DNA of 63,667 nucleotides, the filler included, from Bacteroidales bacterium (GTDB taxonomy: Bacteria > Bacteroidota > Bacteroidia > Bacteroidales > CAIWKO01): assembly GCA_035389045.1 (NCBI GenBank). It is 7 parts of 5 records of this genome, joined end to end, with 100 filler letters (N's around TTAATTAATTAA, not from the genome) between each part and the next. Parts side by side here need not be neighbours in the genome. Positions count along the whole stretch, not along the records: positions 26,107 to 41,062 come from DAOORA010000002.1; positions 41,163 to 43,294 come from DAOORA010000004.1; 5 more parts are not named here. The stretch is one strand, 5' to 3'. The position numbers are program-made. Position 1 is the first letter of the stretch; every line of letters begins with the position of its first letter. Below are positions 27,001-42,000 of this stretch, piece by piece.

Positions 27001-30000
27001 AGAATGGCCCGATGATTTATATCATGATTGCCTTATAAAATTTATTGAGACGATTAAGAAAGAAAAAAAGGATTTTAATAAAGATCCATTTTTACCTTAT
27101 TTCGAAAAAATTTGTAGTAACAAACATAAAGATGAAAAAAAGAAATCAACAAAGCAACCTAAAACTGTCGTAATTGATGCTGGCATGGATAAAAAAGAGG
27201 ATACTGATGTTGAAGGTTTTTTATGCCACTTATCTAATAAAAACGAGACTTTTTTTTATGGAACAAGTAGATTTAGTCCAGATGATAAATTGAAGTTTAT
27301 TGATGTGATGAGACAAATTATAGAAAGGGCAAGTGATCCGCACATTTCTCTCACTTTTTTAGTTGAAAAGCTTTATTTATCACCAAAGGGTGGAAAGATT
27401 TATATATTAGATGAAAGTAATAAAATAGTAGAAGATGAAAATGAAAAGTTTGTAACAGTAAACGTAAATAAAGCCTATATGGAACTTTTCGGCAATAAAA
27501 CCTTATTTGAAATACAAGCTTTTTTTCTGAATTATATGGATAGTCTTGGTTATGTTCTTAAAGAAAAAGATTTAAAAAACATCAATGATAAATTATTTCA
27601 GTACAAGGATGGTAAAATGTTTGGAGACAAACAATTGGCGGAATTTTATAATGGTTTAAAAGACCCCATACATGCAATTGAAATGTGGATAAATAGATTT
27701 CAAGATAGTATCAATGATTTAACTATAGACTCAAATGGAAAAGAAAAATCAAAAAATAAAAAAAATGTTAAAAGCTAAGGGTTCAAAGTGCAAAAAAGAT
27801 GATGAAATATGGAAATTCCTTAAGAACGAGATGTCGGATGAAGAAGAGGCCTTATTCACGCTTCACCTGACCGAATGCGACCTCTGCCTTGAACTAACGA
27901 AACAGTATCTCCAGTTAAAAAAAGAAGTGGATATAATGTCGGCTGTGAATGTGGCTGATACCGGAAAAACCGTTTCAATTGTTAGCCAAATAAAGGAAAT
28001 GCTGGATGGGCTAAAAAACAAAATCTCCACAGAAATAGAAAAGAACCTGAGATTGCTGCAAACATATGGAGATGCCTGGTTCAATGAAAAACAGATGCTG
28101 CCTCTTATGGCTACTAAAGGTAAAAATAAAAAAGCAGGGGAAATAAACCTCGCCTATAATAAAGGGAATATAAAAAAGGATTTTGAATTTGAATATTCTG
28201 ATGAAAGCAAGGAATTAAGGATCTGGTCGGATAATATACATGCAAATAAAAAAGTTTTCGTTTTTGGAATTGATAAACCTTATTATTTTGAATATTCTTT
28301 ATTTGAACCGTCATTAGGAAAATACAGAGCGCTTTTCCGCAAGGTAAAAGGAAAAAAGTTTGTTGTTTATCTGGAAAAATAAATCGGCTGCCCGGTTTTT
28401 TCTGCCTTATCTGATAGCTTATGATAAAATCATTTTATGTAGTGTCTAAACGAAAACTCCATTTTCTTCGTTATGCTTGCTCCAAAAATGCTCATTTACC
28501 CCAGTAAACTCCGCTTTTTGTCGCTTCGCAAGCCTCGAAACTGAACTTTTCGTTTCAGACACTGGGTTTTCGCTCAAACACAATGTAGCAAAGCATTTCC
28601 TTATCATTTGCTTATTGTTTGTTGCATGTAATTACCGAAATAACAGTTATGAAAAAGGCGACAAAATAAAGGGTAGAATAATTGCTGTGGTTGACGGCGA
28701 CACCTATGATATTTTACTAAAAAACAAAAGAAAAATACGGGTCCGTATGGAGGGGATTGATGCTCCTGAAAAGGGAATGTCTTTTTACAGGGCAGCAAAA
28801 AATCACCTGGCACGGCTGTGTCTTTTAAAGACGGCTACGGTAAAGATTACGGGCAGGGATAAGCACGAAAGGTTTTTGGGGTTTACATATCTTGACGATG
28901 GCACAGAGTTGAGCCACGAGATGATAAAATCCGGACTGGCATGGCATTTTAAGAAATACAACTCCGATGCAGACCTTTCTGCCCTGGAAAAGGAAGCAAA
29001 AAAATCCGCTGTGGGCTTGTGGAGCGAAAAAAATCCTGTCGCACCCTGGGAAATCAGAAAACTCAGAAGAAACGGTAATACCTCCCAAAAATCGTCCGGA
29101 ATAAATTACCATCAGGGTGCGAAAACCGATAATTAGTGACTGTCCATAAAGTCAGAGTTTGAACCAGAATGTTCGAGTTCGAGGCCTGCCCGTCCGTAGC
29201 CTGAGCACAGGCGGGCGGACTTTCGTAGTCTTGAAAATCAAGGAGTTTACTATGATAAACGACTGTTTTCAAGACAAGAGTAACCCTGCCCGACTGGCGT
29301 CAGTCAGGCGGGGAAGAAATCGGACATTATGGACAAACTCTAATTAATCCCTTCTGTATATTTAGAAATTGTTTTTATCACATAAACTGATTTATTCACA
29401 AATATAGCAAATTATTTATCAAAAAAAAATACAAAAAAAATATTTTTTAATAAAACATTTTGTAAGTTTGCTTCAAGAATACAAAAAAATGTTCAAAATA
29501 TATTCAAAAGTCATTTTCATTTTTTTATGTTGTTTTTTTCTTTTATGGTCTTGCGACTACAGGCAAAGAGGGAAAAAACACGATTCCTCCGGGATTGATT
29601 CGGTACCGGCACACAAAAAAGACACAACGGCTAATCCTGTGGCGCCTATTACTGTAAATATCTTTATTGAAAACTCGGGCAGTATGGATGGTTATATTAC
29701 AGGTACGACCTATTATAAAGATGCCCTGACCGATTTGCTGGTTCAATTAAAATTTTTTTATCACGAAGAAAATATAAAAATTAATTTTATTTGCGATGAC
29801 ATTTTTCCTGCCAATAATGAGTTTACATCGCAATTTGTAAGAAATTTATCTAAAAACACTCCCGAATGGAAACAGCATAAGTCATCAGGTTCAACAAACC
29901 TGAATGAAATTATTAAAAAAATATTGAATAATACTCACACTAACAACATTTCAATTCTGATTTCAGATTGTATTTATTCAATCAGTGGAAACTATACTGA

Positions 30001-39000: not shown

Positions 39001-42000
39001 GTTGAGAACTTTAAAAAAGATTTGCTTGAAAAAACAAATGGACAGTCTATAGAAATCAATAATAATTTGCAAAAGTTAAATGTTAACCTTGCAAACATTC
39101 TTTTACAGATGCAAAAAAACGGCACCGGCAATGAACTGTCTTTCCCGTTTAATATTTTAAAAAAAATAAGGAAGAATAGAATCAAAGATAAAAATTAACC
39201 TATTTCATAAGTTTCCTCTGAAATTTATGATTGAATATTGGTTATTTGGAATACCATTATTATAAAACAAATAAGGTTAAAAAACATATTTTAGAAAAAA
39301 AACGCATCAAATGATTAATACTTAATTAAGATAATAGGCCAGACATAATAAAATTTGTTGTAGCAAATCAACCATGAAAAAATTTTTATGTATAAATAAA
39401 TGGCAATTGTAATCCCTGTAATGCTGAATATGTTTATACCGCTATTCCTAATTAATTGAATAATGTTTTAAAAAAAGAAAAACTTGTGTTATAAGTAAAA
39501 GTAAAAATAAAAAAATGAAGCAGACGAAAAAGTAAATAAATCATATGAAAAAAGACCGCAGCTATTTCTGGCCCAGTTTCACGGATTTAATGACAACATT
39601 ATTTTTTGTCATGCTTGTATTGTATGTATTGACATTTATTAAACTTAAAATTCAGCAACGGGCCACCGAGGCACAACTTGCAAAAATTCTAGAAATACAA
39701 GATGCTGTTAAACAATTAGACACTACATATTTTTCTTATGATTCTGTATATAAACGCTACCAATTAAAAAGGAAAATAAATTTTCCGAAAGGAGAGCCTT
39801 CTGTGAATGCTCTTCCCGCAGATGACCTGACACACCTGATTCAAGTTGGCAGCTCTATAAAAAAATTAGTCGAAAACCTGGAGGCAAAATCCGCCGGGAA
39901 AGACATAAAGTATGTCTTAATAATAGAAGGCATGGCTTCAAAAGATAATTATCCGGACAACGACATATTATCATACCGCAGAGCACTTTCTTTGAAAAAT
40001 TATTGGAAGGACGTTGCTCGAATACCCGATACGTCAATGTTCGAAATACAGGTATCAGGATCGGGTACTGGTGGCATTGGCCGATATCCTTCTCATGAAG
40101 AGGAAAAGAATCAGCAGATATTAATACAAATAATTCCTAAAATTGGAAAGATCTGATATAGCTGCTCCGGCAAGCTATTCAATAATATATTTTCTTGTAT
40201 CACACTGATTGCCATCAAACAGAGTAATGCTGAGTGTCATGGGGGGCAGGCTGTCGTCAAGACAGATATTTCCTTTCCAGTTTCCTTCAGCATCTACAAT
40301 ATAACTGCCTTGTGGTTTCCAACGGAATGTCTGAATATCAAGTGTTATTTCCGCACCAGCTAATGACTGGTCAACTTTTCCTGCGATTTCATAACAATTG
40401 GTTTGTGCATCTTCAGTCACTTTGGCTGTATTGATCCAGTCCTGAATGTTAGGGTCGGACCATTTTACATTACCATCAATGGCCGGCGATATCAAATTGA
40501 TACGTGCAGGTTGTTTTTGGGGGCGGTAATTCCCGCAACTATCGTAAAGCAGTATAACAAATAATAAGATTAAAAAAAACTTGAGTTTTGTCATAATAGT
40601 ATATTCTCCCGGATTATTATATAATAATTATTTATAAGTTCGTAATGAATCGACTAAAAACATTCCTTTGGGGTTTTTACCGGCATCAGAAACCAGGTTA
40701 ATTTCGTAAGCAGCTATATTTTTCAAATTTAACGCTCCGTCGCTATATCTTGATCCTTGCCCATACGAAAGCTCGAAATCATCAAAAGGTATTTGTATCC
40801 TTATCCATTCACCATTATTATCGGCTAATATTTTCTTATCACAATCTTTTACCATTGCTGCTTGCAGAAATAATATTGTTTTTTGTTTGATGTTATTAAT
40901 TTATCACAATTTTATTATGAACCTTTCCTTTTTTTGAATTTTTAAGAATCTGATTAGATAAATTATTTAGTGAAGTATCTTCTTTGATGTTTTCGTCATT
41001 GATTATCATCTTCATCTGAACGCCTTTGGTGTTAAAAGGATCCACACTTGCTACCTTTTTAANNNNNNNNNNNNNNNNNNNNNNNNNNNNNNNNNNNNNN
41101 NNNNNNTTAATTAATTAANNNNNNNNNNNNNNNNNNNNNNNNNNNNNNNNNNNNNNNNNNNNCAGCAATGCCACAGCGGAACAGATCAGGGCTGCCATTG
41201 AAAAGATCAACTCAATGGGCTATCATACCAGAACTGATGACGAGGAAAACCTGCCTCACAAAATATATGGCCTGAGCACTATCGAACGGAAGTTCTATTT
41301 TTCTTTATTTTTTACGGTTCCGTTGCTGGCCGCTATGTTTATTCCGCTGAATTTTATGCATAATCCATTTTTTCAGCTAACAATGTGTATTCCAGTATAT
41401 GTTGCCGGCATATGGTATTTCGGTAAAAGTGCATATCACTCGGTGCGTTCCGGCGTTCCCAATATGGATGTGCTGATAACGCTGGGATCATCGGCAGCAT
41501 TTTTTTACAGCCTCACCGGCACATTACTCAATCTGGGCCATGAATATCAGTTTTACGAAACTGCAGCCGGCATCATCAGTCTGATATTTCTGGGAAACAT
41601 GCTGGAACACCGTTCGGTGCGCAAAACAACAAGTTCGATTAACGATCTTGTGAAGATGCAGAAAACTATCGCTAAAGTTGTCACTGTAGTAAATAATACA
41701 GAAAAAATAACAGAAACTGAGGTATCAAAAATAAAAGCCGGCGACATTTTACTTGTCAATTCCGGCGATAAAATCGCAACCGACGGTGAAATTATTCAGG
41801 GGGAGGGAATCGTTGATGAATCGCTGGTTACAGGTGAAAGTCTGCCCGTAAACAAAAGCACCGGAGATCCGGTGGTCGGAGGCACTATTCTATGTTCGGG
41901 AATTATCAGGGTAAAAACCACGGCTGTTGGCGAAAAATCCGTGATGGGGAAGATCATAGAGCTTGTCAGAAATGCCCAGCAGGACAAGCCTAAGCTGCAG

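Follow-up and report, generated by a model that had tools for sequence, protein, structure and literature searches.

A Bacteroidales gene cassette uniting a bacterial tubulin relative, an actin-fold ATPase and a predicted membrane ion motor of the Zorya kind

The FtsZl1 family of bacterial tubulins has long gone unexplained, and a cassette in a Bacteroidales genome (GCA_035389045.1) that places one of its members beside a putative membrane motor raises the question of what such a gene set is for. The window analysed here is a stretch of 63,667 nucleotides made of concatenated contig pieces; the contig that carries the cassette is 139,738 bases long, and only its first 14,956 lie inside the window. 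The layout given in the initial annotation, with seven genes (g125 to g131) on one strand, was reproduced, and all seven open reading frames are present on the plus strand at 29468-40156. Gaps or overlaps between neighbouring genes measure 4-20 nt (the 3' end of g129 overlaps the start of g130 by 11 nt), with the exception of a 346-bp AT-rich gap ahead of g131. Within the window, none of the proteins g125-g131 reached a Pfam gathering score.

Seven to nine genes make up this conserved block, in which a bacterial tubulin relative and an actin-fold ATPase accompany a membrane ion motor of the Zorya kind. The previously reported recurrence of gene order was recounted in 80 loci from other genomes, which hold orthologues of g125 (76 loci), g126 (76), g127 (80), g128 (77), g129 (68), g130 (53) and g131 (48), co-oriented in every case. 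The motor pair g130/g131 is absent at 13 of these loci, 11 of which extend more than 4 kb past g129, and all 13 still keep g125-g129; we regard the motor as one module and not as the core of the system. The cassette had also been described as widespread in Bacteroidota, which holds for its taxonomic spread but not for its commonness, since only six of 401 genomes sampled across the phylum carry it; it is present in seven of 61 relatives. This distribution, together with the separate FtsZ and two canonical ExbB/TolQ genes that the source genome encodes elsewhere, fits accessory behaviour.

At the centre of the block, g127 (31365-32891, +) encodes a tubulin/FtsZ-like GTPase whose placement in the FtsZl1 (Tubulin_2) family was reproduced. 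Its GGTG and SSIFGGTGAAGFP motifs are invariant, and among 27 aligned homologues 24 match PF13809 and 21 match PF00091; the window's own protein matches PF00091 alone (E 0.013). The adjoining g128 (32912-36361, +) encodes a 1149-aa protein with a C-terminal ATPase of the FtsA/Hsp70 type (ASKHA). The DFGTTNTH and DIGGGTTD motifs reported earlier were recovered and, along with FSGTGSK, are invariant or near-invariant. The FtsA model PF14450 is matched by 22 of 31 family members (best E 1.6e-5), and the second motif gave weak profile matches to Hsc70, BiP and MreB. The N-terminal ~590 residues are conserved and their fold is unknown. Natural fusion proteins of 1315-1658 aa join the g127 and g128 families in 39 cases, and in two of them the second part aligns with the entire g128 (E 6e-117 and 1e-76). 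The sequences thus suggest that g127 and g128, a single polypeptide in some genomes, act as one unit. The pair recalls FtsZ and FtsA in setting a tubulin-fold GTPase beside an actin-fold, FtsA-type ATPase at the membrane, although the sequences are very distant, g128 adds its long N-terminal region and the genome has its own FtsZ. A role in cell division is unlikely because the gene set occurs in just 6/401 genomes.

The motor consists of g130 (37669-39198, +), an A subunit with the MotA/ExbB/TolQ/ZorA fold, and g131 (39545-40156, +), a MotB/ZorB-like B subunit; both assignments had been made in the initial annotation and were borne out. Three transmembrane segments in g130 are followed by a helix through residue 484, giving a cytoplasmic helical tail of ~300 residues, and the AlphaFold2 (AF2) model has a pLDDT of 76.9 overall and 84-97 in the transmembrane core. 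TolQ, ExbB and ZorA were the best Foldseek rows. VIA structure comparison gave matches with Z 9.6-11.7, in which ExbB and TolQ stand level with ZorA (Z 10.7-11.7), and type II ZorA (8VVI_C) fits the g130 core with an rmsd of 2.2 over 99/99 residues at 23% identity. P143, G147 and G198 are invariant among g130 orthologues and T151 and T202 at least 90% conserved. The window's own g130 matched neither PF01618 nor the ZorA models at 1e-3; ten of 39 orthologues match PF01618, one orthologue passes the gathering score of that model (26.6 vs 22.9), and ten of 39 match the PADLOC ZorA2 model (best E 1.2e-11). In g131, a single transmembrane helix bearing FTDLM and an invariant Asp (D14) precedes an OmpA-like peptidoglycan-binding domain, and F8, W9, D14, M16, T17, S143, R146 and R180 do not vary across 39 sequences. 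The protein matches PADLOC ZorB1 (E 1.2e-8), and its profile matched Shewanella type I ZorB (8VVN_B) over the full length at E 1.1e-15, with E. coli ZorB (8QYD_F, 7.8e-8) and flagellar MotB (6YKP_F, 9e-5) lower among the PDB matches. The proposed likeness to ZorAB is strengthened by this ranking of ZorB ahead of MotB and by the ZorA2 matches of g130 orthologues. In the alignments the pair retains ion-pathway residues: the invariant Asp of the B helix and the conserved Thr, Pro and Gly of the A helices.

Like ZorB, g131 joins an N-terminal Asp-bearing helix to an OmpA-like wall-binding domain, and like ZorA, g130 continues from a MotA/ExbB core into a long helical cytoplasmic tail. This tail is similar in length to that of type II ZorA (residues 100-378), and Zorya requires both the Asp and the residues that bind peptidoglycan, according to the sections of that study available to us (PMC11890865). 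In contrast to ZorA, g130 has an ExbB-like N-terminal helix and a cytoplasmic insert. Its family's tails end either in a membrane helix (15 of 39 orthologues, ~40%) or in a short basic segment, and those of the first kind are therefore no free ZorA-like spike. The partners also differ: where Zorya has ZorC/ZorD, ZorE or ZorF/ZorG, the cassette has the vWA lipoprotein g125, the GTPase g127 and the ATPase g128. Because ZorC, D, E, F and G were all absent when the cassette was scanned with PADLOC, its identification as canonical Zorya was rejected; g131 was the only cassette protein with a convincing match to a PADLOC model.

The remaining three genes extend the system into the membrane and periplasm. 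The product of g125 (29468-30940, +) is a periplasmic vWA-fold lipoprotein anchored at both ends, with TM-like segments at residues 7-31 and 455-486, the latter serving as a C-terminal membrane anchor, and additional beta-rich domains. The MIDAS-like motif claimed for it (ENSGS) was confirmed: 33 sequences all keep E68 and S72 as well as C29, D167 and S171, the AF2 model has a pLDDT of 87.4, and the best 50 rows of the VIA comparison are all vWA-fold proteins (Z 5.9-7.4). None of the 33 family members matches a vWA model in Pfam. The small membrane protein g126 (30933-31352, +), with hydrophobic segments at 28-52, 60-83 and 106-126, belongs to no known family, and searches including Pfam and PADLOC returned no match. 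Segment prediction and alignment make g129 (36378-37679, +) bitopic. Its signal/lipobox (C18) leads into a periplasmic part of low conservation, and past the TM segment (residues 203-235) lie a cytoplasmic coiled coil and a C-terminal domain of ~100 aa. The alignment has a mean column identity of 21%, with conservation confined to this last domain.

Many loci add a lipoprotein hydrolase at the 3' end. The variable gene 3' of the motor genes encodes an aspartyl protease at 30 of the 80 loci, a trypsin-like protease at 15 and an SNase at 10, in the last case directly 3' of the g131 orthologue. Lipoprotein-type signals were found in 26/30, 15/15 and 9/11 of these proteins, respectively, compared with control values of 0/80 for g127 and 0/48 for g131. 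The accessory nuclease or protease is thus an exported lipoprotein, whereas Zorya nucleases are cytoplasmic. In the window, an SNase homologue at 28477-29136 (+; PF00565, E 1.9e-20) is likely an accessory gene of the cassette. It has a lipobox-like FLIICLLFVAC segment with no canonical start codon just upstream, leaving its start uncertain, and contigs from other runs diverge within the gene at 28534-28568.

Parts of this arrangement were known. Makarova and Koonin (2010) described FtsZl1 genes with vWA and 'OmpA-like' neighbours, and the rows of their supplementary file 5 that were available list, without comment, a MotA/TolQ/ExbB protein beside FtsZl1: Deinococcus radiodurans DR_0540-DR_0536 encode a 478-aa protein, a 109-aa protein, FtsZl1, a 'MotA/TolQ/ExbB membrane protein' and an 'OmpA family protein'. 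The available portion of the main text (PMC2875224) takes the OmpA-like proteins for outer-membrane barrels and names neither MotA nor MotB. The seven-gene form of Bacteroidota, in which the 1149-aa ATPase has its own gene and g129 is present, is missing from those supplement rows; their Bacteroides rows show a 913-aa FtsZl1 adjoining a cysteine protease. Kaur, Burroughs, Iyer and Aravind (2020) grouped FtsZl1-type tubulins with membrane vWA and HSP70-fold proteins as NTP-dependent conflict systems (PMC7159879); in the portion available, MotA, MotB, TolQ and ExbB do not appear and the sole 'Zora' string is an author name. Their DO-GTPase and GAP1-N2 systems, from Firmicutes and Actinobacteria, centre on paired GTPases and GAP1, both of which the cassette lacks. 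New relative to prior knowledge are the g127/g128 fusions, the variable 3' hydrolase gene, the membrane helix of the tail, the motor-less loci, the rarity of the cassette and the continuation of its contig into GmrSD and DISARM-like genes.

Taken together, the genes specify a multi-protein system that spans the envelope. Its periplasmic parts are the g125 vWA lipoprotein, the outer region of g129, which varies, and the g131 domain that binds peptidoglycan; g126 and the MotA/MotB-type pair lie in the membrane; the g130 tail, the conserved g129 C-domain, the g127 GTPase and the giant g128 ATPase are cytoplasmic. We propose that g130 and g131 assemble into a wall-anchored 5:2 unit resembling ZorAB, which ion flow would drive or gate, while the vWA domain and the periplasmic part of g129 may sense or grip some envelope target. 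A signal could then pass through the motor tail and/or the cytoplasmic domain of g129 to the g127/g128 pair, which would assemble on the membrane with GTP and ATP and reshape or seal it, and the exported protease or nuclease might attack foreign material in the periplasm. The cassette thereby offers a testable idea on the function of FtsZl1 tubulins.

The most likely purpose, plausible at a probability of about 0.45, is conflict, that is, defence against phage or other envelope-breaching invaders. The defence island invoked in the initial annotation exists on the part of the contig beyond the window, which encodes GmrSD, a DrmMI-like methylase (PADLOC 5.9e-197), SNF2 and DEAD helicases and TPR-CHAT, and a serine recombinase ahead of rimP-nusA-infB; it was not found inside the window. 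PADLOC (E<=1e-12) matched 15 of 130 proteins flanking 25 other loci, at 10 of those loci, which is no clear excess over random regions from three genomes (10/117 proteins, 6/20 regions). In favour of conflict we counted the gene order in 80 loci, the ZorAB likeness, the fusions, the variable hydrolases, the rarity, the defence genes of the contig and the conflict role that Kaur and colleagues independently assigned to other FtsZl1 clades. Counted against it were the lack of ZorC-G and of convincing PADLOC matches beyond g131, the flanks, the motor-less loci, hydrolases exported unlike Zorya's cytoplasmic nucleases, the membrane-helix tails (15/39) and the failure of the window's g130 to match PF01618 or ZorA.

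The same parts could serve an immune-free machine that remodels membrane or forms vesicles, with the tubulin-like/actin-fold pair shaping the inner membrane, the wall-anchored motor giving energy or position and the hydrolases acting as cargo or in envelope maintenance. In the available text (PMC2875224) Makarova and Koonin put this forward as their chief proposal, and it suits the membrane or envelope association of every part, the lipoprotein nature of the hydrolases, the unenriched flanks and the coverage of much of the cassette by three RNA libraries from an unperturbed community, where DNA carry-over is possible. We consider it rather unlikely, given that the cassette is rare and patchy, that its closest motor relatives are ZorA and ZorB, that the 3' enzymes vary and the outer part of g129 is poorly conserved, and that a defence island surrounds it in this genome. 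Clearly less probable is a trans-envelope force transducer, in which the ion motor pulls the vWA protein, as TolQR acts on TolA and ExbBD on TonB, or drives an Agl-Glt-like adhesion complex, for adhesion, surface movement, uptake or outer-membrane tethering. All of these couple a 5:2 motor to an envelope protein, once with a vWA domain. Inner-membrane-tethered vWA proteins beside tolQ/tolR-like genes have been proposed as a new force-transducer class, Bacteroidetes included (available part of PMC12204202), and Myxococcus Agl-Glt combines a MotAB-like motor with the vWA lipoprotein adhesin CglB (available part of PMC9946355). The g125 membrane helix could dock on the motor, and the g130 fold is equally near ExbB, TolQ and ZorA. 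However, g125 is held by both its C-terminal helix and an N-terminal lipid, the predicted wall-binding domain of g131 is of the MotB/ZorB and not the TolR/ExbD type, the long tail and cytoplasmic NTPases have no counterpart in Tol/Ton, 13 loci retain g125-g129 with no motor, and the 80 loci share no conserved outer-membrane partner.

It is very unlikely that g130/g131 are here a decaying or non-conducting remnant, with g130 diverging more than any other family member and the two genes uncoupled by the AT-rich spacer (39199-39544). At the related loci inspected the A and B genes overlap or abut, and the spacer was seen here alone; g130 shares 36% identity with its best homologue other than itself, and one DNA contig from another sample has 31 letters in place of 37208-39499 (depth 2.1). 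Both reading frames are nevertheless intact, the window proteins, used as alignment reference rows, keep the invariant and near-invariant residues, and the g130 core is modelled with high AF2 confidence. The end of g130, the spacer and g131 each have RNA-library coverage, with contigs from two runs bridging 39100-39439.

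The cassette lies in a composite sequence made up of seven pieces, taken from the ends or interior of five contigs (C1 three times, C2, C4, C5 and C97) and linked by N runs with a TTAATTAATTAA spacer (9458-9557, 20117-20216, 26007-26106, 41063-41162, 43295-43394 and 51484-51583). As the window is a concatenation, adjacent pieces do not provide genomic context for each other. The cassette piece (26107-41062) corresponds to C2:1-14956, C2 being a contig of 139,738 bases. Seven plus-strand ORFs span 29468 to 40156 and encode a putative vWA-like lipoprotein (g125, 490 aa), a small membrane protein (g126, 139 aa), an FtsZl1-type GTPase (g127, 508 aa), a predicted ASKHA ATPase (g128, 1149 aa), a bitopic protein (g129, 433 aa) and the putative A and B subunits of a motor (g130, 509 aa; g131, 203 aa). 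Adjacent genes overlap or are separated by gaps of 12-20 nt, except for g130 and g131, between which there is an AT-rich spacer of 346 bp with no ORF of note (39199-39544); in all five related loci inspected in detail, unlike in the window, the A and B genes abut or overlap. No cassette protein of the window reached a Pfam gathering score by itself, and PADLOC returned nothing convincing for the cassette except ZorB1 for g131. A scan for sigma-70 promoters and terminators, which is ill-suited to this phylum, performed at chance level (54 sites vs 52.9 expected).

On sequence identity, the cassette proteins of the window stand well apart from their relatives: g130 shares 36% identity with its best non-self homologue, and g127 shares 42-47% with its best ones and 41-48% with the homologues aligned to it. 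A locus search with the single g127 protein found no relative, and an alignment of 27 g127 homologues was needed. Scanned against one genome per species, this alignment matched at least 600 stretches, at least 584 of which were confirmed. The best 80 of these confirmed loci, all from other genomes and with up to 10 kb kept on each side, form the comparison set, in which genes were found by ORF calling, one phmmer round and then profile search. These best 80 loci come mostly from Bacteroidota, with a few labelled Leptospiraceae, Balneolaceae, Thermochlorobacter, Sphaerochaetaceae or Williamsia, several of which are metagenome bins; cultured carriers include Flavobacterium, Maribacter, Chitinophaga and Pedobacter strains. 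The initial annotation had reported that the seven-gene order recurs, and among the best 80 loci this recurrence proved real and well conserved. Homologues of g125 and g126 are each present in 76 loci, g127 in 80, g128 in 77, g129 in 68, g130 in 53 and g131 in 48, genes being missing partly due to short contigs. The order from g125 to g131 on a single strand is always kept, and the exact full string occurs in 30 of the 80.

Thirteen of the best 80 loci end at g129 without a motor pair, 11 of them with more than 4 kb of further sequence, and the motor pair is thus a frequent module of the system rather than its invariant core. The 13 loci with this variant, from Spirosoma, Arcicella, Cytophagales and others, include L024:16593-18655 and L029:16375-18428; in these two, which were inspected, a lipoprotein aspartyl protease and a membrane protein of ∼456 aa with a WG-containing repeat come after g129. 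Across the phylum, the g127 profile (E ≤ 1e-20) matched six of 401 evenly sampled genomes of at least 90% completeness, in five of 180 genera and with the source genome included, while the single g127 protein matched seven of 61 relatives, some of them weakly.

The B subunit (g131, 39545-40156) has the make-up of a ZorB protein, i.e., it is MotB-like, with an Asp in its TM helix and a peptidoglycan-binding domain. Across 39 sequences of its family, the single TM helix opens with invariant F8, W9, D14, M16 and T17; R146, within an OmpA-type L-S-Y-x-R-A motif, and R180 are invariant too. D14 falls at the position of the ion-carrying Asp in MotB, ExbD, TolR and ZorB. The Asp of ZorB is essential for Zorya defence, according to the structural work (PMC11890865). 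When the g131-family profile was searched against all PDB sequences, the Shewanella type I ZorB ranked first (8VVN_B, E 1.1e-15, positions 4-204), followed by E. coli ZorB (8QYD_F, 7.8e-8), Campylobacter MotB (9e-5) and type II ZorB (8VVI_A, 8e-4); 8VVN and 8VVI were identified as ZorAB structures through PMC11890865. The PADLOC ZorB1 model matches g131 at E 1.2e-8. With the NCBIfam ZorB1 model g131 scores 21.6 bits, far under the cut-off of 400, and we therefore regard it as a relative of ZorB1 and not an equivalog.

For the A subunit (g130, 37669-39198), it had been noted that the PADLOC ZorA models miss the protein at E ≤ 1e-3. The same was found for the window's own g130, which matched neither PF01618 nor the ZorA2 model at 1e-3; ten of 39 orthologues do match the type II ZorA model PDLC00638 (best E 1.2e-11). 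Together with the ZorB matches in the PDB, these orthologues both support and extend the earlier claim that the FtsZl1 cassette carries a ZorAB-like stator. PF01618 is likewise matched by ten of the 39 at E ≤ 1e-3, and the L014 orthologue, the one for which there is a bit score, lies above the gathering score (26.6 vs 22.9). Two segments are kept in 39 sequences of the family, P-L-Y-L-G-L-M-G-T-M-x-G-I (P143 and G147 invariant, T151 at least 90%) and G-G-V-K-I-A-M-I-A-S-F-x-G-L-x-L-T (G198 invariant, T202 at least 90%). In carrying conserved Thr residues, these two TM helices resemble those of ZorAB and MotAB, in which a polar ring lies opposite the Asp of the B subunit (PMC11890865).

In the AF2 model of g130 (pLDDT 76.9 overall, 84-97 over the first 160 residues), an N-terminal helix is followed by a small alpha/beta insert and two long TM helices, after which the chain is helical up to residue 484. 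The top Foldseek rows were all TolQ, ExbB and ZorA (E 2.5e-3 to 0.2), and in a second-look alignment 24 of the top 25 rows were ExbB, TolQ or ZorA chains (Z 9.6-11.7). The core scored Z 9.6-11.1 against ZorA chains, a tie with ExbB and TolQ within the tool's resolution, and the type II ZorA core 8VVI_C aligned over all 99 residues (rmsd 2.2) with 23% identity, the highest of the list. Because the mere arrangement of helices can yield Z values this high, the fold reading relies on the purity of the list as to family, combined with the evidence from sequence. The g130-family profile searched against PDB sequences returned only coiled-coil noise in addition to type II ZorA (E 0.052) and TolQ (0.73).

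The tail of g130 is ∼300 residues of helix in the model, and tails in the family measure ∼265-326 residues. A hydrophobic, TM-like helix stands at the very end in 15 of the 39 orthologues, unlike in ZorA, and ∼50 residues before the end in two more; the remaining tails looked at, including that of the window, finish in a short basic segment. Such ends suggest that the tail probably comes back to the membrane at its tip, and the dips in model confidence near residues 290, 325 and 434 would fit a folded-back tail. A complex prediction of g130(1-340) and g131(1-60) with g129(195-433) as partner scored 0.00 twice, which, as it was run without controls, says nothing either way. In several Flavobacteriaceae loci (including L013:16048-16686 and L014:15963-16325), an extra ORF of 120-212 aa separates g129 from a shortened g130. 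It matches the N-terminal part of the g130 profile, with the L013 copy also carrying a BatD-like domain (PF13584, 4.4e-9), and the first helix of the A subunit seems to have been split off in these loci.

The cassette motor is the closest relative of ZorAB found in this analysis. Zorya systems pair their motor with ZorC and ZorD, ZorE, or ZorF and ZorG, whereas no PADLOC match to any of these (E ≤ 0.1) was found for the 11 proteins of the shown part of the contig, and none of the 13 ORFs in the 20 kb beyond it matched a Zorya soluble partner (E ≤ 1e-12). Since the cognate partners are absent from these genes, the cassette is not a member of Zorya, and a canonical Zorya system was rejected. A flagellar stator was also rejected, as ZorB outranks MotB in the g131 profile search and flagellar PomA/MotA chains scored lower against the g130 model (Z 7.3-8.2). 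The presence of a canonical FtsZ elsewhere in this genome, where two canonical ExbB/TolQ-type genes are also found, led us to reject a division role for g127.

The cytoplasmic partners of the motor appear to be a tubulin relative and an actin-fold ATPase. Homologues of g127 match Tubulin_2 (PF13809, 24 of 27) and Tubulin (PF00091, 21 of 27) at E ≤ 1e-3, with the window's own protein under this threshold (PF00091, E 0.013), and the glycine-rich loops GGTG and GGTGAAG, predicted to bind GTP, are invariant among the aligned homologues. Assignment of the family to FtsZl1/Tubulin_2 follows from these models and loops; its profile drew only CetZ from the PDB (E 0.099). Similarly, g128 keeps the three ASKHA motifs in order (DFGTTNTH, DIGGGTTD and FSGTGSK), and its relatives match FtsA (PF14450, 22 of 31), Ppx-GppA (6) and EutA (3), all of one superfamily, as expected of a putative ASKHA ATPase. 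Hsc70, BiP and MreB chains match weakly at the second motif (E 0.009-0.02), and a language-model search with g128 led to FtsA-family, Ppx/GppA, Hsp70 and SrfB clusters. The N-terminal ∼590 residues are well conserved, but no fold could be assigned to them; apart from a weak lead to SrfB (score 0.80), an Atlas feature search with this half returned only clusters without a name. Among the longer g127 relatives are 39 proteins of 1315-1658 aa (P0223-P0261, one source being a Paludibacteraceae bin) in which the tubulin-like GTPase is fused to a g128-type protein; in the two fusions that were aligned, the sequence after about residue 505 matches full-length g128 (E 6e-117 and 1e-76). This natural fusion argues that the g127 and g128 products, a tubulin-like GTPase and an FtsA-fold ATPase, act as a single unit.

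On the periplasmic side, the lipobox Cys (C29) and D167 of g125 are invariant; the protein carries the motif E68-N-S-G-S72, and a TM helix lies at its C-terminus. All 50 VIA rows listed for its model (AF2 pLDDT 87.4) are vWA-fold proteins, including Rpn10, the RGLG1 MIDAS domain, integrin I domains, the Sec23/24 trunk, pilus adhesins and alpha2delta, at modest Z values of 5.9-7.4, and Foldseek gave E-values of 1.7e-3 or weaker. At the sequence level, none of 33 family members matched the vWA Pfam models at E ≤ 0.01, and a g125 profile found nothing in the PDB (best E 0.44). The metal-site motif begins with Glu in place of the Asp of DxSxS...T...D (E68-x-S70-x-S72, with D167 invariant). Thus, of the vWA domain with a MIDAS-like motif that had been proposed for g125, the fold stood on the model matches, but the metal site was not accepted as proven; we accept a predicted vWA-like fold with an altered MIDAS. 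In g129, a signal sequence with a lipobox and a poorly conserved outer part are followed by a TM helix, a coiled coil and a C-terminal domain of ∼100 residues that is conserved; mean column identity across its family is 21%.

A variable gene 3′ of the B gene is a new observation of this study. Directly 3′ of the B gene, the best 80 loci contain a retropepsin-like aspartyl protease (30 loci), a trypsin-like protease (15) and/or a staphylococcal-nuclease homologue (SNase, 10), families that were checked with Pfam for eight representatives. By a rule requiring an uncharged hydrophobic stretch ahead of a Cys within the first 55 residues, lipoprotein-type signals are present in 26 of 30 aspartyl proteases, 15 of 15 trypsin-like proteases and 9 of 11 SNases, and in none of the controls (cytoplasmic g127, 0/80; g131, 0/48). 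The window differs in that its SNase (28477-29136, plus strand; PF00565, E 1.9e-20) lies upstream of the cassette, co-oriented with it, and has a lipobox-like segment without a canonical in-frame start codon just before it. Among the best 80 loci, ten carry an SNase. Before the SNase, on the cassette strand, two overlapping ORFs of 393 and 215 aa (26597-28382) with weak matches to sigma-70 region 2 / ECF sigma (E 0.002-0.035) and an anti-sigma zinc finger (E 2e-4 to 0.0035) may encode a local regulator pair; the best 80 loci held no relatives of them. Convergent with the cassette is a minus-strand ORF of 139 aa (40175-40594) with a lipoprotein-like N-terminus, which had no family match and no relatives among the best 80 loci.

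No function of FtsZl1 proteins has been tested or sharply predicted since 2010. In the literature searched, the family is treated only by Makarova and Koonin (PMC2875224), and the portions of their text available to us contain no MotA or MotB and take the OmpA-like neighbours as beta-barrel outer-membrane proteins. GenBank annotation in supplementary file 5 of that paper places a ‘MotA/TolQ/ExbB membrane protein’ and an ‘OmpA family protein’ directly after FtsZl1 in two Deinococcus genomes. Kaur et al. (2020; PMC7159879) interpret as conflict systems other clades of FtsZl1, which occur with paired GTPases, vWA and HSP70; the sections at hand contain no MotA, TolQ or ExbB. As far as their accessible parts go, a 2023 phylogeny of FtsZ and tubulin leaves the Tubulin_2 group aside, and a 2025 survey of MotAB relatives has no mention of tubulin and leaves ZorAB out of its trees. 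A search for literature linking Zorya or ZorA with tubulin, vWA or FtsZ-like proteins gave nothing on this cassette, and outside subscription journals the ZorAB-type reading of the FtsZl1 neighbours was not found in print. Applied to the ‘OmpA-like’ neighbour and the unnamed gene that precedes it, this reading gives the vague idea of membrane remodelling a form that point mutations could probe, in the Asp and the wall-binding Arg residues of the B subunit and in the motifs of the GTPase and the ATPase.

Beyond the window on the same contig (C2:14001-54000 of G000; loci L090 and L091), the cassette is followed by a reverse-strand block of HSP70 (PF00012, 4.8e-41), TPR and DUF1598 proteins, then by a 986-aa TPR-CHAT protein, an MreB-like fragment, a calcineurin-like phosphoesterase, GmrSD (PF03235, 3.1e-36), a type IIG/DrmMI-like methylase (PADLOC 5.9e-197), an SNF2 helicase with a 1714-aa DEAD helicase (DISARM-like), and a serine recombinase ahead of rimP-nusA-infB. 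These genes place the cassette in a defence island in this genome, and a second conflict system, likewise uncharacterised, may be formed by the HSP70/TPR/CHAT group. The initial annotation's defence island is therefore real on contig C2, although it does not lie within the window and was not shown to be general. In flanks of up to 5 kb at 25 other loci, PADLOC matches (E ≤ 1e-12), including BREX PglZ/BrxL and a type I restriction system, were found in 15 of 130 ORFs (out of 362 near-flank ORFs) and 10 of 25 loci, which does not clearly exceed what random 10-kb regions from three genomes gave (10 of 117 ORFs, 6 of 20 regions, four ORFs above 1,200 aa dropped). We put the probability that the cassette serves defence or conflict at roughly 0.45, and consider a role in membrane remodelling unconnected with immunity somewhat unlikely. 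A 2025 paper (PMC12204202) proposes that vWA proteins of the inner membrane transduce force from TolQR-like motors; such force transduction, serving adhesion, uptake or tethering, strikes us as distinctly improbable as the purpose of the cassette.

Every step beyond the gene content, folds, motifs, fusion and distribution is inferred. A particular form of the defence reading can be sketched, and we think it unlikely to hold in full. A wall-anchored, ion-driven rotary motor of the ZorAB type would be mechanically coupled to a pair of tubulin-like and actin-fold filaments in a ‘motor plus cytoskeleton’ immune device. The periplasmic vWA protein would act as a sensor that detects a breach of the envelope, filaments would assemble at the breach and seal, pinch off or collapse the membrane, and lipoprotein nucleases or proteases would destroy material injected into the periplasm. 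The ZorAB-type reading of the FtsZl1 neighbours would in turn make the Zorya motor a portable module that can be connected to partners besides nucleases, here a tubulin relative fused to or paired with an actin-fold ATPase. This would bear on how 5:2 motors signal to the cytoplasm and on how wide a range of prokaryotic cytoskeletal proteins serves outside cell division.

Sequences from other samples may reflect strain differences around the cassette. The contig sets of two RNA libraries and one DNA run stop matching the window at 28534-28568 (region 28493-28568), just 5′ of the lipobox-like segment of the SNase, and run on into unlike sequence; the two ORFs upstream may belong to a strain-specific junction, and the start of the SNase may be damaged here. 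In a DNA contig of depth 2.1 from another sample (run X2), position 37208 is joined to 39499 via 31 other letters, which would delete g130 entirely, along with the end of g129 and most of the spacer, and may represent either a strain without the A subunit or an assembly artefact. Transcription of the cassette finds weak support in three activated-sludge metatranscriptome libraries, which share one year and habitat and may be one campaign. As DNA is possible in such libraries and there was no silent control, and as parts of the cassette without contig cover are not evidence of silence, the counts are to be read with this in mind: contigs match the stretch at ≥99% in 24, 18 and 11 of 30 bins, and two of them pass from the end of g130 into the spacer.
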